Source: Myxococcales bacterium
Lineage (GTDB): Bacteria > Myxococcota_A > Polyangia > Palsa-1104 > JAEUJZ01
NCBI GenBank assembly: GCA_016794465.1
Contig: JAEUKA010000028.1
Span: forward strand, 1 to 64,000
Direction: 5' to 3'
Length of the DNA: 64,000 nt
The position numbers and the translations under genes were made by a program. Under the pieces are notes generated by a model. It saw nothing but the letters and a program-made list of their open reading frames with translations, was not told the origin of the DNA and ran no database searches. Each line of letters opens with the position of its first letter. The first letter of the stretch is position 1. Shown here piece after piece: positions 5,092 through 41,011 of the stretch.

Positions 5092-5215
5092 GAGCGCCTA
5101 TCAAAACCGTAGCGAGGAACCCCAGCTGCAAGGAGGAAGGAGTGAGCGGCCTTGGGGCCGCGACCGACGACCGACGCAGCAGATGGGGTCCGCAGTAGGT
5201 TTTGATAGGCGCTCT
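5091..5215. terminator. Large inverted-repeat element / bidirectional terminator candidate between convergent genes
   Basis: Perfect 18-bp arms agagcgcctatcaaaacc (5091-5108) and ggttttgataggcgctct (5198-5215) flank an 89-nt GC-rich spacer that itself contains a cggcc-ttgg-ggccg hairpin. Left arm starts at the last base of the CA stop codon; right arm overlaps the stop of the convergent gene. Confidence 0.45.
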
Positions 5216-7073: not shown

Positions 7074-7090
7074 GAGTATACCTCGATAAT

Positions 7091-7241
7091 ATGGTTATCG
7101 TCCTTTCAGTTGGTCACATCTCGGCTGTCACGGCGCGGGTCCCCCTTCCCGCCGATAAAAAAGTCTCTGGTCGGCCCACGCCTGCTTATCTCGTCGAGAA
7201 ACTCCCTTGTGACCAGCTGATGGTTATCGTCTGTTCAGTCC
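7091..7241. repeat. Two copies of a 21-bp direct repeat (19/21 identical), 130 bp apart, upstream of the GC-depleted gene
   Basis: atggttatcgtcctttcagtt (7091-7111) and atggttatcgtctgttcagtc (7221-7241) in the 300-bp intergenic region between 5214..7073 (start) and 7374..8450 (stop). Confidence 0.4.
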
Positions 7242-7373
7242 GTGTTGAGCCAGTCCATCAGAAAGCCTGGCATTGCGTCAGGTTTTCAGCCCACGGCGCG
7301 GCTCTTCAGCGGCAGACGAAGCGGAGCATATCAGCGATCGACGCCGCTGGGGCAAGTCGAACCCGGCTGATTG

Positions 7374-22787: not shown

Positions 22788-24440
22788 ATGAGCCGTCCAG
22801 TTCTCACGCGTACGTTGACCGGGGCATTGCTTACCCTGTCACTCGGCGCGTGCACCGCTCCACAGGTAGGCAGCCCATGCCCAATTCCGGAAAAGGCCGA
22901 TGCCAAGACGCGGCAGGAGGCGGTCCAGAAGTGCTTCGGGCTGATCGCGGGCAACTCCAACGACTTCCGAGTCAAAAAGGATGTCGACATCCTCTTTATG
23001 ATTGACAACTCGCCGTCGATGTCCCCCAAGCAGGCGGCGCTCGCAAAGAACATTCCCAAGTTCATCGAGAGGATCGAGTCGTTCGGGGTCAACTACCACG
23101 TCGGCATCATCACCTCTGACGTGGGAACGACCGTCTCGGATGGCGCGACCTGGGGCGCCGGCTCAGAGTCGTCGTGCGATAGCTTCGCTGGCGACGACGG
23201 GCGACTTCAGGATCTGACCTGCGACAAGCGCAACACCGTCTCGCCACAGGCTTCGCAGGCGTGTACCTCGCTCTGCCCGGACAACCGCTTCAAGCCGACC
23301 GACGGTTCCAAGTACATCTCCAAGATCGATGGCAAGACCAACGTCCCGCCGGCGCTGCGACTCGATCCGATGACCGGCCGCATGGTCGACGACGGACCCG
23401 TCAATGCCTTCAAATGCATGGCGCTCGTCGGAGACTCTGGCTGCGGCGTCGAAGGTCAGATGGAAGCGGTGCGGCGCGCCCTGAAAAACAGCGCCAACGG
23501 CGACTTCCTGCGCAACGGCTCGACGCTGGCGGTCATCTACATCACCGACGAAGATGACTGTTCGGTTCAGCCCAGCCGCCGCTCGGAGCTAAACCCCGGC
23601 TACCGCAACTGCACCCCCGGCCAGCCCGACTCGTACGACTGCTACAAGGTCGATTACCGCTGCATGGCCCGCTCGATCCAGTGCACCGAAGGCATGATGA
23701 CGCCCGGCGGCAAGACCAACTGCAAAGAGCGCAGCGACAGCTTCCTCGAGCCGGTCAAGACCTTCTATAACGATCTCCTCGCGGTGCGCTCGTCGGACAA
23801 GCTGCTGGTCAGCGGCATCTGGACCCAGCCCAACATCGACGTGGCCAAGGGTGGCAGCGTGACGATCATCGGCGGGCCCCAGACCTCGGATCTGCGCCGC
23901 GAGCCCGCTTGCCGCAACGCGGTCGACAGCACCGTCGTGGGCCAGCCGCAGTTCCGAATGTCGCAGCTGGCAGCGATGTTCGGCAAGGACAAGGACGGCA
24001 ACGACAACGCGCCGCAGCTGAACGTCTGCAACACCGACGATTATCCGAGCGCGCTCGATACGATCCTCAAGGCCCTGGAAAAGAAGCTGGTGCCGTGCCT
24101 GCCGATCACGCTCAAGACCGTGGGCGGACTGCCGATCTGCCTGGTCGGTGATGTCGACTCGAACACGCCGGACGCCGTGCCTGAGAAGTACTTCCCACTG
24201 TGCTCCACCAGCTGCTGCGATGCTTGGGCTAGCACCAAGACTCCGTCGCTGGCTGACGCTGGCATCCAGAGCGCGTGTGCCGGCGAGACAACCGACGCCT
24301 GCTACTGCGCCATCAAGAGCAAGGACCCGACGGTCTGCACCGAGGGAGTCAACGGCGGCGTCGTGACTGGCGTGTGGCGCAAGAACAACGCCAATCCTCC
24401 GGTCGGCAAGGTCGTCAACTTCCGCTGCGTCGGCTACTAG
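22788..24440 (+). CDS. Secreted Cys-rich vWA(MIDAS) lipoprotein, paralog A
   Basis: AGGGAGG RBS. Lipoprotein signal (LTLSLGAC), MIDAS motif DILFMIDNSPSM, about 30 Cys. 550 aa. Paralogous to the next gene (roughly 55-60 percent identity by eye, same length and Cys spacing). Confidence 0.75.
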   Translation: MSRPVLTRTLTGALLTLSLGACTAPQVGSPCPIPEKADAKTRQEAVQKCFGLIAGNSNDFRVKKDVDILFMIDNSPSMSPKQAALAKNIPKFIERIESFGVNYHVGIITSDVGTTVSDGATWGAGSESSCDSFAGDDGRLQDLTCDKRNTVSPQASQACTSLCPDNRFKPTDGSKYISKIDGKTNVPPALRLDPMTGRMVDDGPVNAFKCMALVGDSGCGVEGQMEAVRRALKNSANGDFLRNGSTLAVIYITDEDDCSVQPSRRSELNPGYRNCTPGQPDSYDCYKVDYRCMARSIQCTEGMMTPGGKTNCKERSDSFLEPVKTFYNDLLAVRSSDKLLVSGIWTQPNIDVAKGGSVTIIGGPQTSDLRREPACRNAVDSTVVGQPQFRMSQLAAMFGKDKDGNDNAPQLNVCNTDDYPSALDTILKALEKKLVPCLPITLKTVGGLPICLVGDVDSNTPDAVPEKYFPLCSTSCCDAWASTKTPSLADAGIQSACAGETTDACYCAIKSKDPTVCTEGVNGGVVTGVWRKNNANPPVGKVVNFRCVGY

Positions 24441-24654
24441 CCTCTCACCGCATCGCCTCCGCAAGTCCCCCGAAAAAACTTCATAAAAATCGCGCTTCCA
24501 GCGAAAGGTCTGGGGCCTCCGTGCGCCTAACCAACCAAGTAGGTCGATGGCAGTGACTGTGGCTTGCTCTCCCTCATCTTGTGAGCTACCGTGCCGCTGT
24601 ACGCCGACGACCCTACATGGTGTGGCGCTACTGAAATCCGTATGGAGGCTTGTG

Positions 24655-26322
24655 ATGCGACGTTCTCAACTTACTCTCGCGCTCTTGGGGCTAGGCTCTG
24701 CGCTGCTCCTGTCGGCCTGCACCAATCCGCAGGTCGGGTCGACCTGTCCGGTGCCAACGACGGGCGATTCCAAGTCAAAGCAAAAAGAGTTCGGCAAGTG
24801 CATTAGTCAGCTCGGCGAAAGTGTCGTCGATGCGCGGCTCCGCAAAGATGTCGATATCCTGTTCCTGGTCGACAACTCTCCGTCGATGACGCCGAAGCAA
24901 AAGGCGCTCGCGAACAACATCCCCAAGTTCATCCAAAAGATTGACGCCACGGGCGCCAACTACCACGTCGGTATCGCCACCAGCGACATCGGCAGCAACG
25001 TCCAGCCTGGTGTGCCCTGGGGCGGCAACATCGGCAAGTGCGACAGCTACGAAGGCGATGACGGCGTCCTGCAAGCCGTGCCTTGCACCACCCGCAACAC
25101 CGTCACTCCCGATGCCCGCAACGGCTGCGCGCAGCTGTGCCCAGACGACAAGTTCGTACCGACCGATGGCCGCCGCTTCATCTCGAAGGTCGATGGCGTG
25201 ACCAATGTGCCGGTTTCGATGGAGCGCGACCCGGTCACCGGCAAGATGGTCGACACCGGTCCTATCAAGTCGTTCAAGTGTATGGCTCTCGTCGGTGACG
25301 ACGGCTGCGGCATCGAGGGCCCGCTCGAAGGCGCCAAGCGTGCTGTGGACGGTCATCGCAGTGAAAACTCGGGCTTCTTGCGCGCCAACTCGGTGCTGGC
25401 GGTCATCTTCATCACCGACGAAGACGACTGCTCAGTCCAGATGGCCAAGCGGGACCAGAACAACCCGAGCTACCGCGACTGCGATCCGACGCAGCCGGAC
25501 TCTCCCGAGTGCTACAACGTCGACTTCCGCTGCTTGGCGCGCTCGATTCAGTGCAACGAGACGCTGCTCACCACGGGCGTCAAGAATGCTTGCAAAGAGC
25601 GGCCCAACAACTACCTCGAGCCCGTCGAGAAGTACTATCGCTTCTTTAGCAACCTGCGCCCGGCCAACAAGCTGCTCATCAGCGGCATCTGGACGCTCCC
25701 CTCGATCGATCTGGGCGGCAAGGTCGAGATCGCTCGCGCCGGTGGCACCACCACCCCGAACCTAAACCGAGCGGGCGGCGCGGGCGCTTCCTGCGTCTAC
25801 GTCGGTGACCAGAGCGTCTACGGTCAGGCTCAGATGCGGCTGTCGAAGTTCGCCAAGCAGTTCGGCTCCGACGCCAAGGGTCAGGCCAACGCGCTCGAAG
25901 TCTCGATCTGCGACATCGACAACTACCCGACGGCACTTGACCGCATCGCCAAGGCCATTGAGCAGCGGCTCCAGGCGCAGTGCTTGCCGGTCATTCCGAA
26001 GACCGATGCCAATGGCAACCCGATGTGTCTCGTCGGTGATGTCGATGAAGCCTCGCCCGCCAGCGCACCGGACCCCGACACCGCGTTCCCGGTCTGCTCG
26101 AAGACTTGCTGCAATGCTTGGGCAGCGACGAGCACGCCAACTCCGGGCGACGACTCGATCAAGATGGCCTGCGAGTCCGAAGCGCGTGACTGCTACTGCG
26201 CGATCAAGAGCAAGGACCCGAACATCTGCAGCGACTCGGTGGTAGCAGGTGTGTGGCGCAAGGGCGGCGCTCAGCCACCTCCGGGCAAGGTCGTCAACTT
26301 CCGCTGCGCCGGCGGCGGCTGA
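24655..26322 (+). CDS. Secreted Cys-rich vWA(MIDAS) lipoprotein, paralog B
   Basis: Start at internal ATG 24655 with GGAGG RBS, 6-nt spacer. Signal LLLSAC; DILFLVDNSPSM MIDAS; collinear with paralog A to the C-terminal VVNFRC motif. Confidence 0.75.
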   Translation: MRRSQLTLALLGLGSALLLSACTNPQVGSTCPVPTTGDSKSKQKEFGKCISQLGESVVDARLRKDVDILFLVDNSPSMTPKQKALANNIPKFIQKIDATGANYHVGIATSDIGSNVQPGVPWGGNIGKCDSYEGDDGVLQAVPCTTRNTVTPDARNGCAQLCPDDKFVPTDGRRFISKVDGVTNVPVSMERDPVTGKMVDTGPIKSFKCMALVGDDGCGIEGPLEGAKRAVDGHRSENSGFLRANSVLAVIFITDEDDCSVQMAKRDQNNPSYRDCDPTQPDSPECYNVDFRCLARSIQCNETLLTTGVKNACKERPNNYLEPVEKYYRFFSNLRPANKLLISGIWTLPSIDLGGKVEIARAGGTTTPNLNRAGGAGASCVYVGDQSVYGQAQMRLSKFAKQFGSDAKGQANALEVSICDIDNYPTALDRIAKAIEQRLQAQCLPVIPKTDANGNPMCLVGDVDEASPASAPDPDTAFPVCSKTCCNAWAATSTPTPGDDSIKMACESEARDCYCAIKSKDPNICSDSVVAGVWRKGGAQPPPGKVVNFRCAGGG

Positions 26323-26514
26323 TCGCAGCTTCCCCCTCGCCTTTTTTGACCCTGCTCAAGCTTCCCCTTCCCGCCTTCCCACACTCCTGACTGGTTCCGC
26401 TTCGACTCCCGCTTGCTCTCGCTGAGACGGAGCGGACCGTGCTGCGTCGGCTTGGGTTGACCCCATCCCGGCGGGTGCGAGATGATCCCACCGGATTTTC
26501 ATTGGGGCTCGCAC

Positions 26515-26522
26515 AAAGGGGG
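26515..26522 (+). promoter_or_regulatory. Shine-Dalgarno (aaaggggg) for the MVP homolog
   Basis: GGGGG at 26518-26522, 6 nt before ATG 26529. The alternative ATG at 26523 abuts the SD directly. Confidence 0.5.
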
Positions 26523-26528
26523 ATGGTC

Positions 26529-29453
26529 ATGAACGAGCGCGGCAGTCGCAAGATTCCGGTTACGGAGCGACAGTTTCTTTGGGTTCAGGACGACGACAAG
26601 GGAGAGGTGACGCTCCACGTTGGTCCGACGATGGTGTCACCGACCGCTGCCGATCGAGTGGTGATCGACGACGGCGCCGGCAGCTTCCGCGAGGACACCT
26701 CGGGGCGGCCACAGATGATGATCGAGGTCGGCGATCACCAGTACGCGGTGCTGTTCAATCCGCTGCTGGAAAACGACGGTGGCGCCAACGGTCGCTTCCG
26801 CATTGGCCGCAACGAGGCGCGTCCGCTGAAGAACGGCACCCGGGCGATGATTCCCGGTCCCTGTAGCTTCTTTCTGCGACCCGGACAGCGCTGCGAGGTG
26901 CGCGACGCTCACGAGCTGTCGGCGAGTCAGTACTTGGTGGTGAAGGCCTACGGTCCGGTGGATCGCTCGGCGCCGTACTTCGATGTGACGGTGCGCTCGG
27001 CAGCGATCACCCGGGCGACGGCGGAAGCGCTCGACGGGCGTCCGACGCCACTGCCCGACAAAGGCACCGATCAGGATCTCAAGCGCGGGCAGCTGATCGT
27101 TATCCGAGGCATTGATACCCAGTTTTACATTCCGCCCACGGGCGTTGACATTGTGCCGGACACCTCGGTGGACGAGTCGGGCGCAACCGTCAGTGCGACG
27201 ACGGCACAGAAGCTGATGCAGCAGATGCAGGCGCAGCTGAGCAAGCCGTCGCCTTCGACTGTGGCCCCGATGGCGCCACCGCTGGCCAAAAAAGGAAGTC
27301 TGAGCGAAGAAGAGCTGGAGCTGCGGCTCGAGGACGATGAGTCGCTAAGTGACAAGAGTCGTTCGCCGCGTCGAGCGGTCGCACAGTACCAAGCGGAAGC
27401 CGCTGCCCAGATGGTCGATCAGTCGGCACGGACCCGACAGCGAGTCGCACCACCTACGGCGATTCCTGCCCCGGCCGCTCCGGCTCGGGCTTCTGCTGCG
27501 CCACCACCGCCCCCTCCGCTGTCCGCTGCTTCGTCCGGTGCAGTTGCTGCGGCTCCTTCAGTCGGTGCGGCGACCGTATCGGTAGACGATGTCCTGTCTT
27601 CGGATGCTCTCCGCAAAGCGATCGAAAAAGAGGCACGGCAAGCGCGTCTTATTCGCAGCGCGGTGGTGCTAGGGGAAAAGGAATACTGCGTTCTCATCGA
27701 TCCAGACGGCAAGCGCGAGATCAAAGTGGGACCGGCGCGGGTCTTCCCAGGACCGTACGACACCTTCATGATCAAGGGCTCGCGCAATCGGGTCTACGAT
27801 GCGTATGAGCTGCTTCCCCAGCGCGCGCTGTGGCTGCGGGTGATCTCGCAGAGCAGTCGCGATGACATGGCCAAGAAGATGCCGCGCGGAGTCGAGCTGG
27901 ACAAAGAGCTGTACTATCCCGGCGACGAGCTGCTGCTGTCCGGAGTGTCCGGTTTCTTCTTTCCGTTCAACGAGATCGAGGTCCTGTCTCCGCATACCGG
28001 CGAGGCAGTGGTTGGGAATAACCACTCCAACGTCTTTATCGAAGCGATCGGAATCGATCAAAAGAGCGGCATCTATGTTCGCGATCTGACCACCGGAGAG
28101 GTGCGGCTGATTCGCGGCAAGCAGTCGTACTTGGTTGATCCTCGCAAAGAGATTCACATCACACGCGGTGTGAATCCGCATGACTGGAACCTGTGGATCG
28201 CCGCCAGTGAGCTGCACAAGCGGACCGATCGACATGTCACCACACCGTGGGCGATCTCGATCATTGTGCCGCACAACACAGCGGTATTGGCGACGAGCGC
28301 GGCGGGTCAGCGGGTGATTGAAGGACCATGCGTCACGCTGCTTGAGTATGAAGAGAACTTGGTGCCGCTGCGCCTGTCTACCGATACTCCCAAAGATGAC
28401 AGCAGTCCGCTGGTGACCTGCTTTCTGCGAACGATTGGGAATCGTGTCTCGGATGTGATTGAGATCGAGTCCGCTGACTTCGTCCGCATCAGCCTGCGCA
28501 TCACCGTGAGTGTGACCTTCCTACGTGATCACCGGGACAAGTGGTTTAACGCCGAGAACTACATTCAGGTGCTCTGTGATCACCTCCGTTCGATCGTTAG
28601 GAGTCGGACTCGGACGCTGTCTCTGTCGTCGCTGTGGCCGCAGCTTGCAGCCGTTGTCCGCGATACCATCTTGGGTCCACGCAGTGATGCCGATGGCAGT
28701 CGCAAGGGACGCTTCTTTGCGGAAAACGGAATGCTGGTGCATGAGGTCGAAGTCCTTGATGCAACGATCGAAGACGAGCAGATTGCCGAGATGATGCGGA
28801 GCGTCCAGAGAGAGTCGGTGACGCTAACGATTGGGGATCGGCAAGCGCAAGACAAGCTTCAATCGACCAAGCTCCGCGCCGAGCTAGAGCTAAAGACGCA
28901 CGAGCTACAAGCGCAGGTGCGAGAGCATGAGTCGAAGCTGCGCGAGCTGGAGCGCAAGCTGGTTCATGAGACGCGTCTTCTGGAGCTGCGGGATCGGGAA
29001 GCGATGGCGCGGGAACAGTCGCAGCTGGTAGCAGAGCGGGAAGCGAGCGAGCTGCGTCTGCGCTTGGATCGGGAGTCGGCGGCGCAGAGTGCAGCTCGGG
29101 AAGCGCTGCTCAAGGATGCGGCGACCAAAGCGCAAGCGGCGCAGTCTCTGCATGAGGAGGAGTTTGGACACCTGAGCCGCATCAAGGGACTGGACATGGC
29201 GCTGATCGATGCGCAGGCGCGTGCAGTGGTGGCAGAGCGAACTGCCGTTCAGCCGCAGCTTGTCGAAGCACTGACCGCGCTGGGTGACAAGACGCTGCTT
29301 GGTGAGGTGGCGCAGAACATGAACTTGGTGTCTCTGTTCCGGGGCAAAGAAGCGGGAGAGATTCTCAAGGAAGTGGTAGGTGGGACGCGCTTTGTGCCCG
29401 CCCTTCAGGAAGCGCTGACCGCCAAGCCGAAGTCGCCCGAGCCGAAGAAGTAG
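26529..29453 (+). CDS. Major vault protein (MVP) homolog
   Basis: About 975 aa, no signal peptide. N-terminal repeated ~55-aa beta modules with landmarks matching eukaryotic MVP (SFFLRPGQ vs SFFLQPGE; YCVLIDPDGKREIKVGP vs YCVILDPVGPDGKNQLG). Shoulder-like segment VIEIESADFVRISLRITVSVTF (cf. [21 protein letters not shown]). A ~150-aa coiled coil (LQSTKLRAELELKTHELQAQVREHESKLRELERKL...) in the cap-helix position, then a basic tail. A Pro/Ala-rich low-complexity insert sits inside the repeat region. Confidence 0.85.
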   Translation: MNERGSRKIPVTERQFLWVQDDDKGEVTLHVGPTMVSPTAADRVVIDDGAGSFREDTSGRPQMMIEVGDHQYAVLFNPLLENDGGANGRFRIGRNEARPLKNGTRAMIPGPCSFFLRPGQRCEVRDAHELSASQYLVVKAYGPVDRSAPYFDVTVRSAAITRATAEALDGRPTPLPDKGTDQDLKRGQLIVIRGIDTQFYIPPTGVDIVPDTSVDESGATVSATTAQKLMQQMQAQLSKPSPSTVAPMAPPLAKKGSLSEEELELRLEDDESLSDKSRSPRRAVAQYQAEAAAQMVDQSARTRQRVAPPTAIPAPAAPARASAAPPPPPPLSAASSGAVAAAPSVGAATVSVDDVLSSDALRKAIEKEARQARLIRSAVVLGEKEYCVLIDPDGKREIKVGPARVFPGPYDTFMIKGSRNRVYDAYELLPQRALWLRVISQSSRDDMAKKMPRGVELDKELYYPGDELLLSGVSGFFFPFNEIEVLSPHTGEAVVGNNHSNVFIEAIGIDQKSGIYVRDLTTGEVRLIRGKQSYLVDPRKEIHITRGVNPHDWNLWIAASELHKRTDRHVTTPWAISIIVPHNTAVLATSAAGQRVIEGPCVTLLEYEENLVPLRLSTDTPKDDSSPLVTCFLRTIGNRVSDVIEIESADFVRISLRITVSVTFLRDHRDKWFNAENYIQVLCDHLRSIVRSRTRTLSLSSLWPQLAAVVRDTILGPRSDADGSRKGRFFAENGMLVHEVEVLDATIEDEQIAEMMRSVQRESVTLTIGDRQAQDKLQSTKLRAELELKTHELQAQVREHESKLRELERKLVHETRLLELRDREAMAREQSQLVAEREASELRLRLDRESAAQSAAREALLKDAATKAQAAQSLHEEEFGHLSRIKGLDMALIDAQARAVVAERTAVQPQLVEALTALGDKTLLGEVAQNMNLVSLFRGKEAGEILKEVVGGTRFVPALQEALTAKPKSPEPKK

Positions 29454-29531: not shown

Positions 29532-30098
29532 CTACAGCTTGCCGCAGTAGAAGAAGTTTCCGGGTGCCTCGGGATCGTCGCTCATCATAAACTCCAGCGA
29601 GAGTGCAATCAGCTCGTCGAGCGTGAGCCGGCCATCTTGGTTGCGATCGAGGCGCGCAAACGTCGCCGCTGCATCCGCTGTAGAGCCCATCGCTTGCAGC
29701 AGCCGCGCATACTCATGAACGGTCAGAGACTGACTGCCATCTTGATCAATCAGCTCGATCACATCACGACAGACCTGAGTCAGCCAAGGGGACGCGACAT
29801 GCGCCGCGCGATGCACCAGAATCTGGCGCTCGAAGTAGCGCAAAAACTCGGGCAGAGACACCGAGCCGTCCCGATCTTTGTCCGCTCCGGAAGCCAAGCG
29901 ATGAAACAGATCGACTCTGCTCTCTAACAAACGGCGCGCGCGACGATCCTCTGCCGACAGCCCGAACGCCTGCTGAATCCGTCGTGCTTGCTCGCGAAAG
30001 TCGGACTCCGTAAGAGCCCCGCTTCCATCGACATCGTACATCGCAAAGAGCGTCGAAAACTTGCGTACCTGCAGCGGCGTGAGTGTCGTCTGTTCCAT
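29532..30098 (-). CDS. Four-EF-hand calcium-binding protein (calmodulin/calerythrin-like)
   Basis: Four canonical 12-residue loops: DVDGSGALTESDF, DKDRDGSVSLPEF, DQDGSQSLTVHEY, DRNQDGRLTLDEL. Start at internal Met MEQTTL (30098). Confidence 0.85.
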   Translation of the reverse strand: MEQTTLTPLQVRKFSTLFAMYDVDGSGALTESDFREQARRIQQAFGLSAEDRRARRLLESRVDLFHRLASGADKDRDGSVSLPEFLRYFERQILVHRAAHVASPWLTQVCRDVIELIDQDGSQSLTVHEYARLLQAMGSTADAAATFARLDRNQDGRLTLDELIALSLEFMMSDDPEAPGNFFYCGKL

Positions 30099-30338
30099 CG
30101 CGCATGTCCCCCAAAGAGTCCGGGTCATTTTCGCTGCGATTCCTATTTCTGTCTATACCGACCGCGCGAACGTCACCCCGACCTACCTAGGTGTACACTT
30201 CCGTTCCTCTGAGTTCAGCCGCATGGCACGACGAACGGACTGTCGCGGCACCCTTGTGATAATGATCTTCCTGTAGGACTCTTTTTTGAGCGGGCGACCC
30301 AAAAACGCGCTAGGAGTACGCCCAACATCGGGAGTAAC

Positions 30339-32792
30339 ATGCCTCAAAAGAGACAAATCACCATGCGGCTGACCAGTAGGATTCTCTCTCTGTGTGCCTT
30401 GCTCGTCGCCACTTGTGAAGGCCCTGTGGGGCCGAGCGGTCCGACGGGTCCGGAAGGAATGCCCAGCACTCCCGACACCATGTCGTGCGATCCCAGCCAG
30501 ACCGGACTCCGCGCCGAGCTATCGATCACTCCGCCAGCGCACGGCTCCTTCTATCAAGTCGGAGAAGCGCCGCTGCTTACCATCCGGCTCCTGAGTGGCT
30601 GTCAAAAAGTACTGGCTCCTGCCGAGCTGGGAACAGCGGCTCTGTATCTGGTAGGACCGCGTGGCGCCCTCACCACCCGCAGTGCCAACACGCTCCTCAA
30701 TGCGGTGACTGATCGCGCCGCCAAAGATCGCCAGCACCACTACATCAACCTGATCAGTCCGGCCTATGCAAACCCAAGTCAAGGCGGACTCAAGACGCTG
30801 CCAGATGGATCGCTACAGTATCAGCTGGCACCGATTACCAAGGAAGCGGCGGGCACCTACACCGCAGCGGTACGCGTCAAGTCGAAGGATGAAGTCGAGC
30901 AGATCTTCCCGATGCTTGATCTACAGATTGGCACGGCCACCGTCGAGAAATATGCCTCTGGAGATCCGAACGCATCCAGCTGTGCTGACTGTCACAAGGG
31001 ACCTTCCAGCGGCAAGATGTACATGCACCACATTGAGCCGGGCAGCTCTGCGGTGGGAAACTGGGCGCTCGATCTGTATCCGATCGCGACCTGCAAGCTG
31101 TGCCACAACCAAGACGGCTACAGCGCCAACTCAACGCTGCGCAAGGTTCACGCCGTTCATCGAGGAAAAAACCAAGCCAACCCCGGAGCGGCCCATCCAG
31201 AGTACGGAGTCCCGGCCGATGGCTCGCTGGCGCTGTACACCAACGTCGGCTTCCCCGTGATGCCGGATCAAGAGAAGGACTGCGGCAAGTGTCACCGCGA
31301 TGATCGCAACCTCAAGCTGCCTTCTCGTCAGGCCTGCGGTGCGTGTCATGATGCGCTGTTCTTTGATACCGGCACGCTGTCGCCACCCCGTACTTTCACG
31401 GGAACCTGCGCGGTGGATGCAGACTGTGCATCACGTGGCAGTCTCGCGAAGTGTAACACCGCACTCAGTGTCTGTCAGACGGCGACACATCCCAAACAGA
31501 GCGACGATGCGCAGTGCAGTACCTGCCACTCTGCCGACTCTTCCGGAATCTCTCCGATTCCCGATCGTCATGAAGTGGTCACGCGGACAAGAGTCCGCAA
31601 GATCAAGCTCAGTGAAGTCTCTGTAAGTGGCGGATCGGGACCGCTGGCGGCGATGATGGTGGGTGACACGCTCAAGCTCAGCTTCAAGCTGCTCGACGGA
31701 AAAGGTGCGCCGATCACCGATCTGAAGACCAATGCCACACTGTCCGGAACGCTGCTGATAGGGGGGCCGACCGATGATCGGCAGATGATCTTCCCATCGA
31801 TCAACATCAAGACCGGAACCGGACTTGTGTTTGATGCCGCGACCGCTGTCTATACCTATACGCACAGTGCGACGTGGCCGGCGAGTGCGCTGGCTCCGCT
31901 CAACAGTACGGGTCTTTTGCCACGAGCGAATCCGCCCGGAACGTACACCGCGTGGCTCTATGTCGTCGAGACTTCCACCTATAATGGCGTGCAGGTGCGT
32001 GATGTTGGAACCACGCTGGTGGACTTCCGGGTCGGTGGTTCCCAAGCGATTCGTCCGCGTCATGTGATCACCCGCGACTCCTGCAACTCCTGTCATGTGA
32101 TCGCGCAAGCCCACGGCGGAAGTCGCCGCGATGCCGAAGGCTGTTCGATCTGTCACACGGCTGGCGCAGTCGATCGCACCGTCGGTGCCAGAGGCGTTGC
32201 CTGTACCACCAGCAGTCAGTGTCCCGGCGCAGCAGCGGGCTGGGAGAGCTGTCAGGACACCAACGCAGATGCCAAGCTGGATACCTGCATCATCACGGTC
32301 GATCCGACTCCGGGACAGACCATCAAGTTCTCTGCGATGATTCACTCGACCCACTACGCCCGACGGCTGGGTGGCTATGCTGCGCGGAGCAGTCTGATCA
32401 AGCCGGGAGCGCTCACGTACATCGGCAACTCGAATCGGGTGTTTGATCTTTCAGAGATCCTGTTTCCCCAAGATGTCCGCAGCTGCGAAAAGTGTCACGG
32501 TGACTCTGGAGCAAGCTGCAGCGCCAACAGTCCCTGCGGAATCGGCCAGAGCTGTGTGTCTGGGAAGTGCAAGAACATCGCCTTTACAGCTGCTGACACC
32601 GCCGCTTGCCTGGGCTGTCACGACACCGCAGCAGCAGCCGGTCATGCCGCCCTAAATACCTGGACCGATCCAATGGGAAAGCCGGTGGAAACCTGCGCAG
32701 TCTGTCATGGTCCCACTGCTGAGTTTGCGGTCAGCAGAGTCCACAACATCAGCAGTCCCTACCAGCCTCCCTATTCACGCGAGAAGGAGTAA
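30339..32792 (+). CDS. Decaheme c-type cytochrome lipoprotein (outer-surface MtrC/OmcA-like candidate)
   Basis: GGGAG RBS. Lipoprotein signal (LSLCALLVATC). Ten CxxCH motifs (CADCH, CKLCH, CGKCH, CGACH, CSTCH, CNSCH, CSICH, CEKCH, CLGCH, CAVCH). 817 aa. Confidence 0.85.
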   Translation: MPQKRQITMRLTSRILSLCALLVATCEGPVGPSGPTGPEGMPSTPDTMSCDPSQTGLRAELSITPPAHGSFYQVGEAPLLTIRLLSGCQKVLAPAELGTAALYLVGPRGALTTRSANTLLNAVTDRAAKDRQHHYINLISPAYANPSQGGLKTLPDGSLQYQLAPITKEAAGTYTAAVRVKSKDEVEQIFPMLDLQIGTATVEKYASGDPNASSCADCHKGPSSGKMYMHHIEPGSSAVGNWALDLYPIATCKLCHNQDGYSANSTLRKVHAVHRGKNQANPGAAHPEYGVPADGSLALYTNVGFPVMPDQEKDCGKCHRDDRNLKLPSRQACGACHDALFFDTGTLSPPRTFTGTCAVDADCASRGSLAKCNTALSVCQTATHPKQSDDAQCSTCHSADSSGISPIPDRHEVVTRTRVRKIKLSEVSVSGGSGPLAAMMVGDTLKLSFKLLDGKGAPITDLKTNATLSGTLLIGGPTDDRQMIFPSINIKTGTGLVFDAATAVYTYTHSATWPASALAPLNSTGLLPRANPPGTYTAWLYVVETSTYNGVQVRDVGTTLVDFRVGGSQAIRPRHVITRDSCNSCHVIAQAHGGSRRDAEGCSICHTAGAVDRTVGARGVACTTSSQCPGAAAGWESCQDTNADAKLDTCIITVDPTPGQTIKFSAMIHSTHYARRLGGYAARSSLIKPGALTYIGNSNRVFDLSEILFPQDVRSCEKCHGDSGASCSANSPCGIGQSCVSGKCKNIAFTAADTAACLGCHDTAAAAGHAALNTWTDPMGKPVETCAVCHGPTAEFAVSRVHNISSPYQPPYSREKE

Positions 32793-32797
32793 CGGCG

Positions 32798-34462
32798 ATG
32801 CACTTGCGTGGTGGCGTTCTGACCAGCGCAAGAGTCCGTTTGTCGTCGCTGTGTGCGTCACTGCCGGTGCTCTTGATGATGCTGTTGGGAGTCGGCTGTG
32901 GAGATCCGCGCCCAACTCTGGGAACCCGCAGTCAGTGCATCAGCTGGAAGCAGGAGATTGCGCCCCTCCTTTCCGAAAACTGCGGTTCCTGTCATAGCGG
33001 CGGGAGTCCTGCCGGTGGACTCGATACCTCTTCGTACTTGGCCGTCTTGGGAGGCGGAGAGGTGCGGGTTCGTGCCGTCGCTGGTGATCCAGACTCGGTG
33101 CTGCTTCGGGTACTGAAGAAGGAGTCTGCAACGACCGCACATCAGGGCATCGCGGACTCTGTTCGCGAGCAGCTTCAGCACTGGGTGGTTGACTGCAAGG
33201 TGTCGTATCTGCGCTCTGTTCAGCATCAAGGGGGAGTCCTCAATCCCGATGATCCGCAGGGACAGTTTCACGGCACTCTGCTGCGTGCGACGGGCTACCA
33301 GCTGTCGGCCTGCACTGGCTGTCATGGTGAGGATCTGTCCGGAGGCAAGGCCAAGTCATCCTGTCTTACTTGTCATGCGCAGGGAGTCACGACCTGTGCG
33401 ACCTGTCACGCCCGACAGTCACCTGTTCACAGAGCCCACACGCAAGGCACGACCCAAGGCAAGTCCTTTGCTTGTGCAGCGTGTCATCCGCAGCCGCGCT
33501 TCTGGAATGATCCGGGTCACGTTTCCGAGGCTGATGGCTCTGCACGAACCACCAAGGTCCGGGTTGCGCTGGGCAGTCTGGCCAACCTCACTCCTTCCTC
33601 TTCCATGCGCTCTTCTGCGGCCACTTTTGACTCCGAAACCAAGCAGTGCACAAGTGTCTACTGTCATGGTGGGGTGTTCCCAGATCGCGCCGCAACCAAC
33701 ACCTCTCCGCTGTGGACAGGAGTCGCGAAAGAAGCGGAGTGCGGAACCTGTCATGGCCTGCCACCCAGCTCTCATGATGCGAGCCAGACCCGCTGCAGTC
33801 TGTGTCACAACCGCACCGCTACTGCCGATCAAAAGCTGCTGTCAGGAGGCCGGCATCTAAGCGGGATCAGCGAGATCGGCGACGGCAGCGGCACCTGTGC
33901 GGCTTGTCATGGTTACACCGGAAGTACTCCGTTTCAGGATCTCGCAGCACAGACCGACCAGACTCTGCTCGGAGTCGGCGCCCATGCCGCACACGTGAAT
34001 GCCAGCCATCGCTTGAGCGCTCCGCTTGCATGCAGTGAGTGTCATGGCAGTGTCACCCCGATTCCCAATACGTCTCGCCACGCCGTAACCGGACAAGGAG
34101 TCCGGATCTTTCCTTCTGGCAGCGGCGCCAAGCTGAGCGAATTGGAAGGAGCAAAGCCCACCTGGGATCGCCCAAGTGCGCGCTGCTCCACCAACTACTG
34201 TCACGGCGGTGGCAGCAAGCTGCTGACCGATCTGAGTCCGGGGGTGAATCGCACTCCGGTGTGGACGGCGAGCAGTCAGGCCTCTTGCGGATCGTGTCAC
34301 GGCATTCCGCCCAAGGATGGGAATCACACCGCTACCATGCGTCTTGTCGACTGCGCCACTTGTCATGCCAAGACGATCGATGCCAGCGGAACGATTCTGT
34401 TTGTCGGTCCGGTCGGCGCGCAAAAGACCACCCACTTGAACGGAGTCGCCGATGGCAACTAG
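32798..34462 (+). CDS. Multiheme c-type cytochrome (11 CxxCH + 2 CX4CH)
   Basis: Signal peptide; CGSCH, CTGCH, CLTCH, CATCH, CAACH, CGTCH, CSLCH, CAACH, CSECH, CGSCH, CATCH plus CTSVYCHGG and CSTNYCHGG. Starts 5 bp after the upstream cytochrome stop. Confidence 0.8.
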   Translation: MHLRGGVLTSARVRLSSLCASLPVLLMMLLGVGCGDPRPTLGTRSQCISWKQEIAPLLSENCGSCHSGGSPAGGLDTSSYLAVLGGGEVRVRAVAGDPDSVLLRVLKKESATTAHQGIADSVREQLQHWVVDCKVSYLRSVQHQGGVLNPDDPQGQFHGTLLRATGYQLSACTGCHGEDLSGGKAKSSCLTCHAQGVTTCATCHARQSPVHRAHTQGTTQGKSFACAACHPQPRFWNDPGHVSEADGSARTTKVRVALGSLANLTPSSSMRSSAATFDSETKQCTSVYCHGGVFPDRAATNTSPLWTGVAKEAECGTCHGLPPSSHDASQTRCSLCHNRTATADQKLLSGGRHLSGISEIGDGSGTCAACHGYTGSTPFQDLAAQTDQTLLGVGAHAAHVNASHRLSAPLACSECHGSVTPIPNTSRHAVTGQGVRIFPSGSGAKLSELEGAKPTWDRPSARCSTNYCHGGGSKLLTDLSPGVNRTPVWTASSQASCGSCHGIPPKDGNHTATMRLVDCATCHAKTIDASGTILFVGPVGAQKTTHLNGVADGN

Positions 34463-35738
34463 GCCGCTACAGCGCCGCTTGCGGAGTCTGTGGAAGGGTC
34501 TGTGCTGTGGCCTGGGAAGCGGACTCCTGCTCTGGCAGGGAGTCGCGCAGGCGGACTCTGTAGAGTTCAATGTCTCGACGCTGCTGGCCGGTCGTGCTGA
34601 TCCCCGCGATGGCGAAGTTCACACTGTGGTTCCGGTCTATCAGTCCCTGGGCGCACAGGCCACGATTCTGCGTCCGTACTTTGACAGCATTCACATTGTG
34701 ATGTCGGGCTGGGGCTCGGTACAGCTGGACATCGGTCGCAGCGAGTACTGGTCGGGAGACATCGATCTTGGCTACATCGACGGCAGCTTTGCCAAAAAGC
34801 GCTTGCAGGTGCGCGTCGGTCGCCAGTTTGTGATGGGCGGAGCCGCGCGCAGTGCCCAGCTCGATGGCGCAGTGACCACGCTACAGCTGTACAAAGGACT
34901 GGGAATCACGGCTTATGGTGGCATTCCGGTCACGCCGCGCTTTTCCGCGAGCCGGGGAGATGCGATGTTCGGCGGACGGATGTTCTATCGGCACTCCTTT
35001 GACACTGAAGTCGGTCTGTCGTTCAACCAAGTGATGGGCGAAGGACGAGCCGCGCGACAAGACCTGGCCGTCGACGCGCGCTATGTTCCACATCCCCAGA
35101 TCGCGCTGACCGGATATACGCTGTATGCCATTCCGGAAGCGCGGGTGGCGGAAGCAGACTTCTCTGTGACCTGGCTTCCCAACCTGAAGCTACAGTTTGG
35201 AGCAGACTATCGGCGCACTGCACCGGATCTGTTTCTGCCGCTCAACTCGATCTTCTCGGTGTTCTCGCAAGAGACGCGAGATGAGGTCGGTGGTACGGTG
35301 TATCTGCGACCGATCTCGCGGCTGCGCATCTATGGTGATCTGCGCGCGGTGGTGAACCTGGAGGGAGCCGGAGCGCGGGGCGGAGTCAAGGCAACGGTAG
35401 CACTGGGTCCGCGTGATCACACGACGCTGAGCGCGGAGCTGCGACTCCTCAAGCTACCAAACAACGGCTATGTCCAGGCGCGTCTGTATAGTACGCATCG
35501 ACTGCATCCAGCGTGGTTTGTGACGCTGGGTGCCAACAGTTACTTTCTCGATCAACCGATCAATGGACAGGGGTATTCCTTCACAGGAACCGGCACCGTG
35601 GCGGCAGAGCTGGGCCGGGGCTTCCGTCTGGTCGCCACTGGCTTTGCGGATGTGACTCCGTTTGTGGAGCGCCGCGTTGAGTTTGTGGTCAAGCTCGCCT
35701 ATCACGCCACGCAGACCTTCCGCGAGGTATCGAAATGA
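34452..35738 (+). CDS. Outer-membrane beta-barrel (porin-like) protein of the cytochrome operon
   Basis: Signal peptide (LLLWQGVAQA), alternating hydrophobic beta-strand pattern throughout, no Cys/heme motifs. 11-bp overlap upstream and 4-bp ATGA overlap downstream, so tightly coupled. Confidence 0.6.
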   Translation: MATRPLQRRLRSLWKGLCCGLGSGLLLWQGVAQADSVEFNVSTLLAGRADPRDGEVHTVVPVYQSLGAQATILRPYFDSIHIVMSGWGSVQLDIGRSEYWSGDIDLGYIDGSFAKKRLQVRVGRQFVMGGAARSAQLDGAVTTLQLYKGLGITAYGGIPVTPRFSASRGDAMFGGRMFYRHSFDTEVGLSFNQVMGEGRAARQDLAVDARYVPHPQIALTGYTLYAIPEARVAEADFSVTWLPNLKLQFGADYRRTAPDLFLPLNSIFSVFSQETRDEVGGTVYLRPISRLRIYGDLRAVVNLEGAGARGGVKATVALGPRDHTTLSAELRLLKLPNNGYVQARLYSTHRLHPAWFVTLGANSYFLDQPINGQGYSFTGTGTVAAELGRGFRLVATGFADVTPFVERRVEFVVKLAYHATQTFREVSK

Positions 35739-36796
35739 GGGCCTTTCGCCTGCGCTGGCTGCTCTGTGCCAGCGTCCTACTTCTCGTCGCCTGCGCGACC
35801 TATTGGAGCAAGATCGGTGGGGGCGACTCGATCAAGGCTTCGCACAGTGTCCATGCGCGCGCCAAGCTCGACTGCTTGGTCTGTCACGAGCCGATCTATG
35901 ACGCGCAGAGTCTTACCGGAGACTTCCTTCCCAAAGAACAGAAGTGTCTGGAGTGCCATGAAGACAACAAGAAGAAGGGGGAGTGTGGCTACTGTCATAC
36001 TGATCCTACTCGTCCGCTGACCTACCGAAGGGAGCCCTCTGTCCTAACGCTGTCTCATGCCAAGCACATTGAGCGGACCAAAGAAGACTGCACGCGGTGT
36101 CACAAGACGCTGTCTGATCGTGGCCAGGCGGCAGTAGCGCCGACCATGGACTCGTGTCTGGGCTGTCATCCGCACCAGCAAGAGTTCGATCAGGGGTCGT
36201 GCGGAGCGTGTCACAAGGATCTCAAGCGCTATCCCCAGAAACCCCTAACAAGGTTCTCGCACCGAGGGAACTTTGTCTTGGGACACGCCCGCGCCGCTCG
36301 CTCGACTCCTGAGAGCTGTGCGACCTGTCATGAGCAGTCCTCCTGCGCAGACTGTCATGCCAAGACCGTGCTCGGTCCGATCGAGCTGAAGTTCCCAGAG
36401 CGGGCGGACAGCGACCTGATTCATCGCGGCGACTTCCTCGGTCGACACAGCATGGAGTCGCGCGCCGATCCCGCTTCCTGCTTGCGCTGTCACGGCACCA
36501 GCTTCTGTGAGCGCTGCCACAGCCAACAGGGAGTGAGTGGTAGGAGTGACAACCCGCGCAACCCACATCCGGCGGGCTTTAACACGCCAAGTCATCCGCA
36601 GTTTCACGGACTTGCGGCCCGGCGCAACATCTCAAGCTGTGCCAGCTGTCATGATCAGGGTCCGCGCTCCAACTGTGTCAGCTGTCACAAGGTCGGTGGC
36701 CTCGGGGGAAGCCCACATCCTCCTGAATGGACAGAGCGTCACGATCGTCAAGAGATCCTACGAAATGGCATGTGTCGCTACTGCCATACGCTGTGA
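35735..36796 (+). CDS. Periplasmic 13-heme c-type cytochrome
   Basis: 13 CxxCH motifs in 353 aa (CLVCH, CLECH, CGYCH, CTRCH, CLGCH, CGACH, CATCH, CADCH, CLRCH, CERCH, CASCH, CVSCH, CRYCH); lipoprotein-like signal (LLLVAC). Confidence 0.85.
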   Translation: MRAFRLRWLLCASVLLLVACATYWSKIGGGDSIKASHSVHARAKLDCLVCHEPIYDAQSLTGDFLPKEQKCLECHEDNKKKGECGYCHTDPTRPLTYRREPSVLTLSHAKHIERTKEDCTRCHKTLSDRGQAAVAPTMDSCLGCHPHQQEFDQGSCGACHKDLKRYPQKPLTRFSHRGNFVLGHARAARSTPESCATCHEQSSCADCHAKTVLGPIELKFPERADSDLIHRGDFLGRHSMESRADPASCLRCHGTSFCERCHSQQGVSGRSDNPRNPHPAGFNTPSHPQFHGLAARRNISSCASCHDQGPRSNCVSCHKVGGLGGSPHPPEWTERHDRQEILRNGMCRYCHTL

Positions 36797-36861
36797 AAAG
36801 CCAAGCGAGTGTCACGCACTCAGCCACAGAGATTCCTACTAACAAGGAGAGAGAAAATCCC

Positions 36862-37224
36862 ATGCGCACCGTACTTGTCCTCGTGTCTCTGTTTTCGTTT
36901 GCTCTTACGACTTCGGCCAGCGCGGATGAGAATGATCCCCGGGTGAAGCGGGCCTGGAAAGCAAAGTGCGCGTCCTGTCATGGAGAGGATGGCAAAGGAG
37001 ACACCGAGCAAGCCAAGAAAAAGTTCGGCGGTCCGCTGCGTGATCTTACTGATGCCAAAGTGCAAGAGCGCTTCAAAGATCCCGAGCTGCGCGACATGAT
37101 CACCAAAGGCAAGACCGAGACGAAGGACGGCAAGGAAGTCAAGATGCCGGCCACTCCCGAGATCGCCGGAGAGCAGCTTGATGGCCTGGTGCAGTTTGTC
37201 CGCAAGCTCGCCGTCAAGAAGTAG
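36862..37224 (+). CDS. Monoheme class I cytochrome c
   Basis: Start at internal ATG with AAGGAGAGAG RBS; signal peptide; single CASCH and downstream Met ligand (KMPATPEI). Confidence 0.75.
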   Translation: MRTVLVLVSLFSFALTTSASADENDPRVKRAWKAKCASCHGEDGKGDTEQAKKKFGGPLRDLTDAKVQERFKDPELRDMITKGKTETKDGKEVKMPATPEIAGEQLDGLVQFVRKLAVKK

Positions 37225-37263
37225 CGCGTCCCAGAGCGCGCGAATCGGACGCAGGGTGAAGCC

Positions 37264-37866
37264 ATGTTAGTGGTGCTGTTTGGGCTGTCGATGCTGCTCT
37301 GTGTGGTGCTGTTTTTGCGGCCTACCCAGCCGAGCAGAGTGCTCGCGTTTGCCAGTCTGTTTGTGCTGCCAGTCACAGTCAGCTACATGGGAGTGGAGAC
37401 TCACATTGAGAACTCCAAACAGACCAGCTTCTGTACTTCCTGTCATGTCATGAGCAAGCACGGACGGAGCCTGCTCGTCGACGACACCACCATCTTGGCG
37501 GCTTCCCACTATCAAGGGGGAAGGATTCCGCGTGACCGCGCCTGCTTTACCTGTCACACCACCTACACGATGTACGGAGACATGCAGGCCAAGCTACGCG
37601 GGGTCAAGCATGTCCTCGTCAACTACTTTGGCAAGGTTCCAAGTCAGCCAAAGCTGTACGAGCCGTACCACAATCGGGAGTGTCTGCACTGCCATGAGGG
37701 GGCGCGCCGCTATCTGAAGGGAGAGACGCACACCGCCGAGCCAGGGCGGATGGAAAAGATGCGACAGAATCAGCTGTCCTGCATCACCAAGGACTGTCAC
37801 GACACCGTACATGTTGTAAGTGAAGTCGACAGCTTGCCACTGTGGAAGCCGGAGCCATCCAAATGA
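37264..37866 (+). CDS. NapC/NirT/NrfH-family membrane-anchored tetraheme quinol dehydrogenase
   Basis: N-terminal TM helix then CTSCH, CFTCH, CLHCH and a fourth CX4CH (CITKDCH); about 200 aa, typical of the family. Confidence 0.8.
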   Translation: MLVVLFGLSMLLCVVLFLRPTQPSRVLAFASLFVLPVTVSYMGVETHIENSKQTSFCTSCHVMSKHGRSLLVDDTTILAASHYQGGRIPRDRACFTCHTTYTMYGDMQAKLRGVKHVLVNYFGKVPSQPKLYEPYHNRECLHCHEGARRYLKGETHTAEPGRMEKMRQNQLSCITKDCHDTVHVVSEVDSLPLWKPEPSK

Positions 37867-39523: not shown

Positions 39524-41011
39524 GTGCCATCGAATGTGAGCCTTGCCTCCGCACCTGGACGCGCTCACTCTGCGCAGTCGCTGCCCCGTGCTCTGTTTCG
39601 TACCGCACTCCTTTGCGCGGCTGGCGCAGGGCTGCTCAGCAGTCAGTACGTGGCCGCGCGCGAGCTGGGCTCGACCTTCTTTGTCACCGAGCTATCAATC
39701 ATCGCAGCGACGGTGGTCACCCTCATCGGCCCCAGCCTCAGCTACGCACTCGGGGATCGACTGCGCGGATCGGATCGCTTGCTCCAGTGGTGGGCACTGG
39801 CCGCACTCCTTATTCAGCTGGCACTCCCTTTCGGGATTCGCGCGCTCGTTGGATCGCTCGGGGCATCGCATCCACTGTGGGCTGCTGCCATCACCGCTTC
39901 GGCGGTAGCGCTGCTGTGCGGATATTACGCTTTTATTCTGCCTCTTTATGCCGAGCCTGCCTCTCTGCCTCGGCTGTATGCGGCGGAGCTTGGCGGCGCT
40001 CTGCTGACCTTGCTGCTGCTCGCAGTGGCGCCTTCGTATCGGCTGTTCTTGCCTTTCTTTCTGCTGCTGCCGGTGCTGATTGCCTGGCTGACTCAGCGAC
40101 GGCTGGTGGCGCTCTGTACGCTGCTCTTGGCGGGCGCAGTATCCACCCAGACAGAGTCCCTCGATCGCTGGGCCAGTACCCACTACTACCGACATTATCA
40201 TCAGCTGGACGCGCCCCGTGTTATCGAGAGTGTTTACTCTCCCTATCAGCGCATTGATGTGGTGGAAGCGGCTGCCGACACCGCGCTGTACTTGGACGGA
40301 GTGCCATTCTATCGCTCCGGTGATCTCGATTCCTTCAATGTCTTTCTGGCCGAGCTACCGGGCTCTCTCTTGCCGAAAAGGGGTCGGGCACTGGTGGTAG
40401 GGAGTGGCAGTTTCTCGTCGGCGGCACGGCTTCATCGACTGGGTTACCGCGTCACCGTCATCGAGCTGGATGCTCTGGTGGCCAAGGTCGGATTTCATCG
40501 CTTTGCGCACCTGCACAAGCTTTCGCCAGAGATGATCACCCTGCACATCGACGACGCACGCCGGGTGCTTGCGACTCACTCCGATTCCTATGATCTGATT
40601 GTCCTTGATGTACCTGCACCGTATCGGATTGCGACGGCGCTCCTGCACTCACCGGAGTTCTATCGCCAGGTGGCGGCACGCCTGACCCCCACAGGAGTCG
40701 TTGCGCTCAGTCTCTGTGATGACCTGGCGGGATCGCTTGGGAAGCGCATCGCAGCGTCGGCAGCCCAGGTCTTTGCAGAGATCATGGTGGTGGAGAGCAG
40801 TGCCGTAGGACTCGGGGTTCTGTATGGTGGCGCGCAGCTGCCGTTTTCGATCCAAGCCGCTGCAGAACAGCTCCGTGCCCGCGATCCGCAAGGCGGACAG
40901 GTGACTCCTGATCAGCTGGTACGCAGCCAGGTTCTCGACGCTGATCCGCTTGGTCCCCAGGATCTACTTGGCGTCCTGTTGCTGTCACGTCAAGTGGTGC
41001 AGTTGCCATGA
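39524..41011 (+). CDS. Membrane-bound spermidine-synthase-like (PABS-fold) protein
   Basis: N-terminal multi-TM region then Rossmann/PABS-like module (ALVVGSGSFSSAARLHRLGYRVTVIELDALV...YDLIVLDVPAP). 4-bp ATGA overlap with the next gene. Confidence 0.7.
   Translation: MPSNVSLASAPGRAHSAQSLPRALFRTALLCAAGAGLLSSQYVAARELGSTFFVTELSIIAATVVTLIGPSLSYALGDRLRGSDRLLQWWALAALLIQLALPFGIRALVGSLGASHPLWAAAITASAVALLCGYYAFILPLYAEPASLPRLYAAELGGALLTLLLLAVAPSYRLFLPFFLLLPVLIAWLTQRRLVALCTLLLAGAVSTQTESLDRWASTHYYRHYHQLDAPRVIESVYSPYQRIDVVEAAADTALYLDGVPFYRSGDLDSFNVFLAELPGSLLPKRGRALVVGSGSFSSAARLHRLGYRVTVIELDALVAKVGFHRFAHLHKLSPEMITLHIDDARRVLATHSDSYDLIVLDVPAPYRIATALLHSPEFYRQVAARLTPTGVVALSLCDDLAGSLGKRIAASAAQVFAEIMVVESSAVGLGVLYGGAQLPFSIQAAAEQLRARDPQGGQVTPDQLVRSQVLDADPLGPQDLLGVLLLSRQVVQLP

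Follow-up and report, generated by a model that had tools for sequence, protein, structure and literature searches.

The function of vaults has been an open question for decades, and a bacterial major vault protein (MVP) homolog would give a simpler setting for studying it. This opportunity has been visible since 2013, when Daly et al. reported MVP homologs in Corallococcus, Plesiocystis (two copies), Microscilla, Saprospira, Flexibacter and Herpetosiphon, covering myxobacteria, Bacteroidota and Chloroflexi (PMC3762200), and bacterial homologs were reanalysed by Sokolskyi in 2019 (bioRxiv 10.1101/872010). Homologs from Asgard archaea (PMC12962969) and from phages (bioRxiv 10.1101/2023.11.10.566534) have been described in silico only; they show the MVP fold with fewer repeats, five of them in the Asgard case, together with a shoulder and a cap helix. 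Here we report on an MVP-like gene of a Myxococcales bacterium, located at 26529..29453 on the forward strand of a 64,000-nucleotide stretch of contig JAEUKA010000028.1 (assembly GCA_016794465.1), which as a whole we call the window. The 974-amino-acid (aa) product is a clear homolog of MVP, and the locus is a further member of the known bacterial MVP family, within a distinctive Polyangia subfamily. The opportunity for study is thus not created by the present locus; what is added here is a view of a very large family that includes phage contigs, and of a distinct Polyangia subfamily present in cultured strains.

The initial annotation of this stretch had proposed MVP homology from strings aligned by eye, and profile, sequence and structure comparisons bear this out far beyond chance. 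The Pfam MVP_shoulder model (PF11978) matches aa 638-748 at E 4.2e-18 with 65.9 bits, the cut-off being 25, and is present in all 39 of the 39 relatives scanned. Vault_4 lies just above its cut-off (23.5 bits versus 22.9, aa 506-541) and is detected in 37 of these relatives, while Vault_3, at 26.3 bits under a cut-off of 28.8 (aa 579-624), is detected in every one. Vault_2 gives E 0.21 in the query; the classical Pfam Vault repeat (PF01505) has no match in the query protein, and no unrelated Pfam domain was found in it. A phmmer search of all PDB sequences returned MVP chains only (E 2.8e-20, aa 379-902 against rat 274-780), a match strengthened to E 7.6e-34 by a profile of the 39 relatives. 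When a 79-sequence profile was compared by hhalign with human MVP (a sequence identical to PDB chain 11dr_A over 893 of 893 residues), aa 379-947 aligned with human 274-843 at a probability of 99.9% (E 3.6e-33) and ~25% identity. An AlphaFold2 model built from the 79-sequence alignment has a mean predicted local distance difference test score (pLDDT) of 73; a single-sequence AlphaFold model reached 39 and was set aside. Foldseek places twelve full-length MVP chains at the top of the PDB for the 79-sequence model (E 1e-25 to 7.7e-32), followed by a murine R1-R7 fragment (4e-11) and then by SPFH cage subunits (~1e-6). The profile match and the predicted fold that had been proposed as checks were thus both recovered, in the form of MVP_shoulder, the MVP repeat beta fold and the cap helix. 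The 974-aa protein had no match in NCBIfam, PADLOC or PHROGs, and so has no tie to a named bacterial family, defence system or phage family.

The strings that had first drawn attention to the gene lie at aa 113 (SFFLRPGQ), aa 386 (YCVLIDPDGKREIKVGP) and aa 644 (IEIESADFVRISLRITVSVTF). HMMER and hhalign set the second and third (YCVLIDPDGK... and IEIESADFVRISL...) opposite exactly the MVP strings to which they had been likened. The first is present, but as a cross-repeat match, aa 103-147 pairing with MVP 297-343, which is R6 (E 0.0023). MVP's own SFFLQPGE sits opposite query aa ~410-418 in the full-length alignment, so that SFFLRPGQ marks an MVP-type repeat and not a positional equivalence.

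Compared with rat and human MVP (PDB 4V60, 4HL8, 7PKZ, 9BW5, 11DR), the domain order is colinear from the N-terminal repeats to the C-terminal region. Both proteins are soluble and lack a membrane anchor: we found no hydrophobic segment in the 974 aa (maximum 19-residue Kyte-Doolittle mean 1.3), no transmembrane segment and no lipobox, and the product is a soluble, cytoplasmic member of the MVP family. Its description as full-length holds for the order of modules, in which repeats are followed by shoulder, cap helix and C-terminus, but has to be qualified for their content, with about seven repeats instead of nine, an extra insert of 160 aa and a weakly supported cap ring.

The N-terminal beta-rich module (aa 1-215; 26529..27173, +) contains about three MVP-type repeats, with a loop at aa ~141-188 in the third, whereas MVP has R1-R5 in 271 aa. 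Secondary structure in the model amounts to ~15 strands, or roughly three repeats, at pLDDT 80-92 over aa 10-215, and the MVP repeat beta fold is seen in the N-terminal half of the predicted structure. The first ~80 residues align N-terminus to N-terminus with R1-R2 of human MVP (hhalign E 4.7e-5, probability 68%), and the N-terminal repeats are the most conserved part of the protein (column identity 0.90). Internal repeats gave only weak signals in an hhalign self-comparison (probabilities <7%). Four further repeats, equivalent to R6-R9, occupy aa 375-637 (27651..28439, +) and are colinear with MVP 274-519 in HMMER and hhalign alignments, which brings the total, estimated from the DSSP string and alignments, to ~7 as against the nine (R1-R9) of MVP. 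Between the two groups lies a subfamily-specific disordered insert rich in A, P and S (aa 216-374; 27174..27650, +; pLDDT 31-46). This 160-aa element before the R6 equivalent is missing from eukaryotic MVP.

The SPFH-like shoulder domain follows at aa 638-749 (28440..28775, +) and is modelled at pLDDT >90. It leads into the cap helix (aa 750-901; 28776..29231, +), a single, uninterrupted predicted helix of 152 aa with pLDDT ~70-75, which hhalign aligns to the MVP cap helix and whose composition is highly charged (E/R/K/A/L). The initial annotation had described a continuous coiled coil of ~150 residues here. The long helix stands, but the helix shows no heptad periodicity, the observed power being reached by 428 of 1000 shuffles, and we therefore avoid the term canonical coiled coil for it. 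The C-terminal region (aa 902-974; 29232..29450, +) carries the motif LVEALTALGDK..NMNLVSLF.GK, with a column identity of 0.83 over aa 902-950, and is a possible equivalent of the cap ring. hhalign carries the motif (aa 908-947) opposite the MVP cap-ring region, up to human residue 843, at a pLDDT of 37-55 in the model, and a search of the PDB with the C-terminal 85 aa alone returned no MVP and only de novo designed proteins, which we judged spurious. The cap-ring equivalence is therefore weakly indicated.

A nearer point of comparison is the family of bacterial MVP-like proteins of ~810-870 aa (here the ~830-aa family), which includes Corallococcus coralloides H8MNI3, Plesiocystis pacifica A6FXM1 and A6FXE2, Saprospira grandis H6L4P8, Microscilla marina A1ZGE7, a protein of ~840 aa (P0178) that is 33% identical to the query, and P0365 from Nannocystis punicea. 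This family and our protein share all modules in the same order, N-terminal module and C-terminal motif included, with identities of 28-33%, and a tblastn search with P0178 matched three colinear blocks of the MVP-like gene. Both kinds are encoded by stand-alone genes and are found in Myxococcota among other phyla.

An alignment that combines 37 proteins of the Polyangia type and 42 from the ~830-aa family, in which invariant residues run from V45 to A914, brings out what sets the subfamily apart. The insert (query 215 to 375) measures 106-164 aa in the 37 Polyangia-type proteins and ~4 aa in the 42 others. Its column identity is 0.43, and it defies alignment except for a conserved island, VDQSARTRQR in the query (aa 296-305; 27414..27443, +). 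The pattern of this island, [VI]-[DEN]-Q-x-x-R-x-R-x-[RQK], occurs in 39 of 39 sequences, with Q298, R301 and R303 invariant. The span L743-A914, which comprises the cap helix and a short linker, is exactly 171 aa long in 36 of the 37 Polyangia-type proteins, and the matching span is exactly 152 aa long in 40 of the 42 members of the ~830-aa family, a difference of 19 aa. At 0.41 its column identity is the lowest among structured segments, and such constancy of length combined with drift in sequence is the pattern expected from a geometric constraint on assembly. The segment aa 375-743 is ~37 aa shorter in the Polyangia subfamily than in the ~830-aa family. The traits specific to the subfamily are thus the insert, the conserved island within it, and a cap-helix span of 171 aa where the main family has 152.

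The SPFH/Band-7 cage proteins (HflK/C, QmcA, stomatin, prohibitin, erlin, flotillin) share with our protein an SPFH fold followed by a long helix; they are membrane-anchored and have no MVP repeat wall, whereas the query has no membrane segment. Band_7 (PF01145) has no match in the query, although its relative P0365 scores 26.5 bits, above the cut-off of 23.6. Every solved protein in which an SPFH domain precedes a long helix forms a closed ring with the helices as its roof (PMC12624060). The CC1 helices of these complexes are described as being held by lateral hydrogen bonds, and the number of subunits follows 0.1782 x CC1 length + 10.22, staying within two of the observed count in every known complex (PMC12624060). 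For the predicted helix of 152 aa the regression gives 37.3 subunits, and for a span 19 aa shorter, as in the ~830-aa family, it gives ~34. For the cap helix of rat MVP, which we take to be 156 aa long (Asp647-Leu802), the same formula yields 38.0, and MVP is observed at 39, with 39-fold half-shells that make up a 78-mer barrel.

Based on these comparisons, we favour the reading, at a probability of roughly 0.6, that the gene encodes a soluble Polyangia-subfamily MVP protein that self-assembles as a dome of the vault/SPFH type. Subunits would join laterally to form a closed ring or dome, as do MVP and all solved SPFH proteins, with shoulder and cap helices forming the roof and the repeats forming the wall, and by analogy with the solved complexes a dome ring would most likely comprise ~37 subunits (35-39). 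Since the helix lacks heptad periodicity, lateral packing of the SPFH/MVP type would be expected in place of a classical coiled coil. More speculatively, a pair of such domes might join at their strongly conserved N-terminal repeats to give a closed particle resembling a vault. In the rat MVP structure the waist contact is formed by R1-R2, and the colinearity of our N-terminal repeats with R1-R2, together with their conservation (0.90), is suggestive of such docking. The nanocompartment envisaged in the initial annotation is, by this analogy, a plausible idea for an MVP-like protein, and the statement there that no bacterial particle has been described agrees with the literature that we searched, which reports no purified or imaged bacterial particle.

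Several observations weigh against this reading. The regression was fitted to membrane SPFH complexes and MVP, and is used here on a predicted helix that has no heptad signal. The cap-ring region is modelled poorly and is not detectable independently, and a wall with ~7 repeats and a 160-aa insert could alter or block closure of a barrel. No partner resembling TEP1, PARP or vault RNA lies within the window. Assembly is proposed for our protein by analogy with eukaryotic MVP and the SPFH cages.

The likeness to SPFH cages also allows for a different arrangement, in which a single dome is docked on a surface, like all other SPFH cages, either on the inner membrane or on a partner complex, and fences off a patch of it or a client such as a protease, instead of being half of a free vault. 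We consider this unlikely. The query has neither a transmembrane segment or lipobox nor a Band_7 match; beneath the shoulder it carries ~480 structured residues of MVP-type wall repeats, which membrane SPFH proteins do not have; and its most conserved part is the set of N-terminal repeats that is colinear with MVP R1-R2. Moreover, no protease or NfeD partner adjoins the gene in any lineage among the 77 loci compared.

The charged composition of the helix and its missing heptad pattern would also fit a protein that forms no cage, but retains the MVP fold and acts as a monomeric or low-order scaffold or as a filament, with the helix as a spacer resembling a single alpha-helix and the insert as an interaction hub. 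Such a scaffold would be in keeping with the reduced number of repeats relative to MVP and with the large insert. A spacer, however, need not keep its length fixed across divergent members while its sequence drifts, as this span does, and the solved proteins with an SPFH domain and a long helix all form closed rings. We therefore hold the scaffold to be somewhat more doubtful even than the docked dome. Sharp predictions for the purified protein follow from the ruler-like cap-helix length, which points to ~37 subunits per ring, and from the conserved basic island in the disordered insert.

The insert may bear on what such a particle would carry. Eukaryotic vaults have been reported to enclose ribosomes, with TEP1 and PARP4 positioned internally, and prompted by these reports we venture the guess that the ~160-aa insert with its basic island could be a built-in tether for RNA or for cargo encoded elsewhere. 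In its most extended form this idea has the protein forming vault-type cages of ~37-fold symmetry, in which ~37 (or 74) disordered arms in the wall, each with the invariant Q-x-x-R-x-R island, would recruit RNA, ribosomes or trans-encoded cargo into the lumen, and in which the cap-helix span would set the size. We offer this as a long shot. If it were true, the principle of cargo loading would be one not known from eukaryotic vaults, which have PARP4 and TEP1 as proteins apart from the shell, and the cap-helix span (171 versus 152 aa) would set different cage sizes in two bacterial subfamilies.

Proteins of this kind are widespread. A word-indexed search yielded 377 relatives, the best 120 of which are 56-100% identical to the query, ~910-1010 aa long, and come from Polyangium, Byssovorax, Minicystis and metagenome-assembled genomes (MAGs) of Polyangia. 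Many of these 120 already bear a label of this kind, "major vault protein" in JGI or "Major vault protein shoulder domain-containing" in UniRef. When one genome per GTDB species was scanned, 72 loci came to light, nearly all of them in Myxococcota/Polyangia, with a few in MAGs labelled Planctomycetota or Thermoanaerobaculia, and the subfamily is found in cultured strains, namely Polyangium spp. and Minicystis rosea DSM 24000. An exhaustive HMMER search of 1.84 billion cluster representatives (50% identity) returned 908 clusters with E<=1e-3, of which 459 reached E<=1e-30. With P0178 as the query, >5000 clusters at 90% identity were found in Myxococcota (Nannocystis punicea, Labilithrix), Planctomycetota, Parcubacteria and others, with names such as "major vault protein" or "SPFH domain-containing protein" (NCBI/JGI labels). 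The view that bacterial MVP homologs are rare does not stand up to these cluster counts, to the 72 Polyangia loci and to the viral stretches described below, and the novelty that the initial annotation implied does not hold either: such homologs were published in 2013 (PMC3762200) and 2019 (10.1101/872010) and are already annotated in public databases. Some single MAGs contain two subfamily loci (L040 and L063 in BF4_93; L009 and L076 in La1_concoct.199), for example at 55% and 51% identity to the query, which suggests either paralogs in one genome or mixed bins.

The 2013 study (PMC3762200) named horizontal transfer from eukaryotes among the possible origins of bacterial MVPs, and the gene might accordingly have been acquired recently from a eukaryote, or be a decaying relic that lacks a role of its own in the bacterium. 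Composition, selection, breadth and similarity among the bacterial proteins contradict this, and we consider it highly improbable. G+C content (GC) around the gene is 0.59-0.64, like the rest of the window, and the flanking genes are housekeeping genes. The ratio of non-synonymous to synonymous substitution rates (dN/dS) is 0.06-0.09 against three orthologs at 87-89% identity and 0.16-0.18, with dS near saturation, against orthologs at 73-75%; the gene is under strong purifying selection. Orthologs occur at the 72 species-level Polyangia loci, the family fills 908 clusters at 50% identity, and the query subfamily matches the ~830-aa bacterial family at ~265 bits while each of the two matches animal MVP at only ~74 bits.

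The gene lies in an open reading frame (ORF) at 26439..29453 (+), in which an in-frame ATG at 26529 gives the 974-aa product plus stop, for which the ORF, the family alignment, Pfam, PDB and hhalign matches and the predicted fold all speak. We place the start at this ATG because it agrees with the N-termini of 38 aligned relatives (consensus MxERTSRKIPVTERQF), because a Shine-Dalgarno-like AAGGGGG (26516..26522, +), read from the sequence, lies 6 nucleotides 5' of it, and because a promoter-like site falls inside the longer GTG reading. That site is a weak sigma-70-like match, TTGACC-18-GATGAT (26457..26486, +), identified by consensus only (one found versus 0.4 expected).

Relatives also occur on viral contigs. 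Two phage MVPs were reported in 2023 (bioRxiv 10.1101/2023.11.10.566534); in IMG/VR we find far more, with 226 stretches encoding full-length relatives of ~800 aa at 25-33% identity. The viral and Asgard homologs belong to lineages different from that of our protein. Many of the viral relatives lie on contigs of 100-500 kb with 22-40% GC. Neighbourhood clustering, which covered 80 viral loci, found no conserved neighbour; the genes that recur, each at no more than 12 of 80 loci, encode RNA ligase, AAA_33 kinase, metallophosphoesterases, an RlaP-like nucleotidyltransferase and GIY-YIG/NUMOD3 endonucleases. Among the Asgard and viral homologs the Polyangia insert appears only in L078 (IMGVR_UViG_3300031673_000059, 5001-7853), a Polyangia-type copy with 47% identity, the insert and the island VQQAARRRHR. 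This copy is found at one end of a 54-kb contig that is classified as viral; given the locus GC of 60.6%, the sequence may represent host DNA or the border of a provirus.

The surroundings of the MVP-like gene in the window are ordinary chromosomal ones, with phosphoenolpyruvate carboxykinase (PEPCK), a Lon-domain protein, a Ser/Thr kinase, carbonic anhydrase and TonB-dependent receptors. When the ORFs of the 77 loci were clustered in search of a conserved neighbour or cargo, only the MVP gene itself and its antisense shadow ORFs recurred at more than eight loci, the rest being synteny at the level of the genus; Polyangium spumosum, Minicystis rosea and a Thermoanaerobaculia MAG have unrelated neighbours at this position. 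In the absence of a conserved neighbour across these loci, we regard the gene as stand-alone. Of the minor components of the eukaryotic vault, TEP1 (TROVE/NACHT/WD40), PARP4 and vault RNA, none was found near the locus: a search with Rfam at gathering thresholds recovered no RNA family from the 64-kb window, and hence no vault RNA or Y RNA, and Pfam scans of 34 other ORFs of the window found no TROVE, NACHT or PARP domain. A second MVP-like gene was not found within the window, in which a tandem, overlapping pair of canonical SPFH/Band_7 genes in an HflK/HflC-like arrangement lies at 60132-61049 and 61046-61927 (+).

Directly upstream of the MVP-like gene are two tandem paralogs (22788-24440 and 24547-26322, +; 52% identical) that encode Cys-rich, lipoprotein-like proteins of ~550 aa without a Pfam match. 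Convergent with it, at 29532-30128 (-), lies a gene for a 198-aa calcium-binding protein with four EF-hands, which is kept only beside the closest relatives, those whose MVP protein is ~87-89% identical. Downstream, at 30339-37866 (+), are multihaem c-type cytochromes: an 817-aa MtrC/MtrF-like protein, Cytochrome_C7/GSu_C4xC proteins and one protein of the NapC/NirT type. Several ORFs of this cluster fell under a filter on GC at third codon positions that caught most other large ORFs of the window, and the cluster resembles an extracellular-electron-transfer gene set in a Polyangia genome. Lipoproteins, EF-hand protein and cytochromes recur only beside relatives that are at least ~85% identical.

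Farther away, a strongly T-rich coding stretch at 39524-44148 (+), with an AT skew of -0.2 to -0.28, encodes first a 495-aa protein that contains a spermine/spermidine-synthase domain and then one of 1046 aa without a Pfam match, and its products are probably polytopic membrane proteins. On the other side, at 8631-9353 (-), an RNase T2 family protein adjoins the Lon substrate-binding-domain protein and the PEPCK, which is of the GTP-dependent kind.

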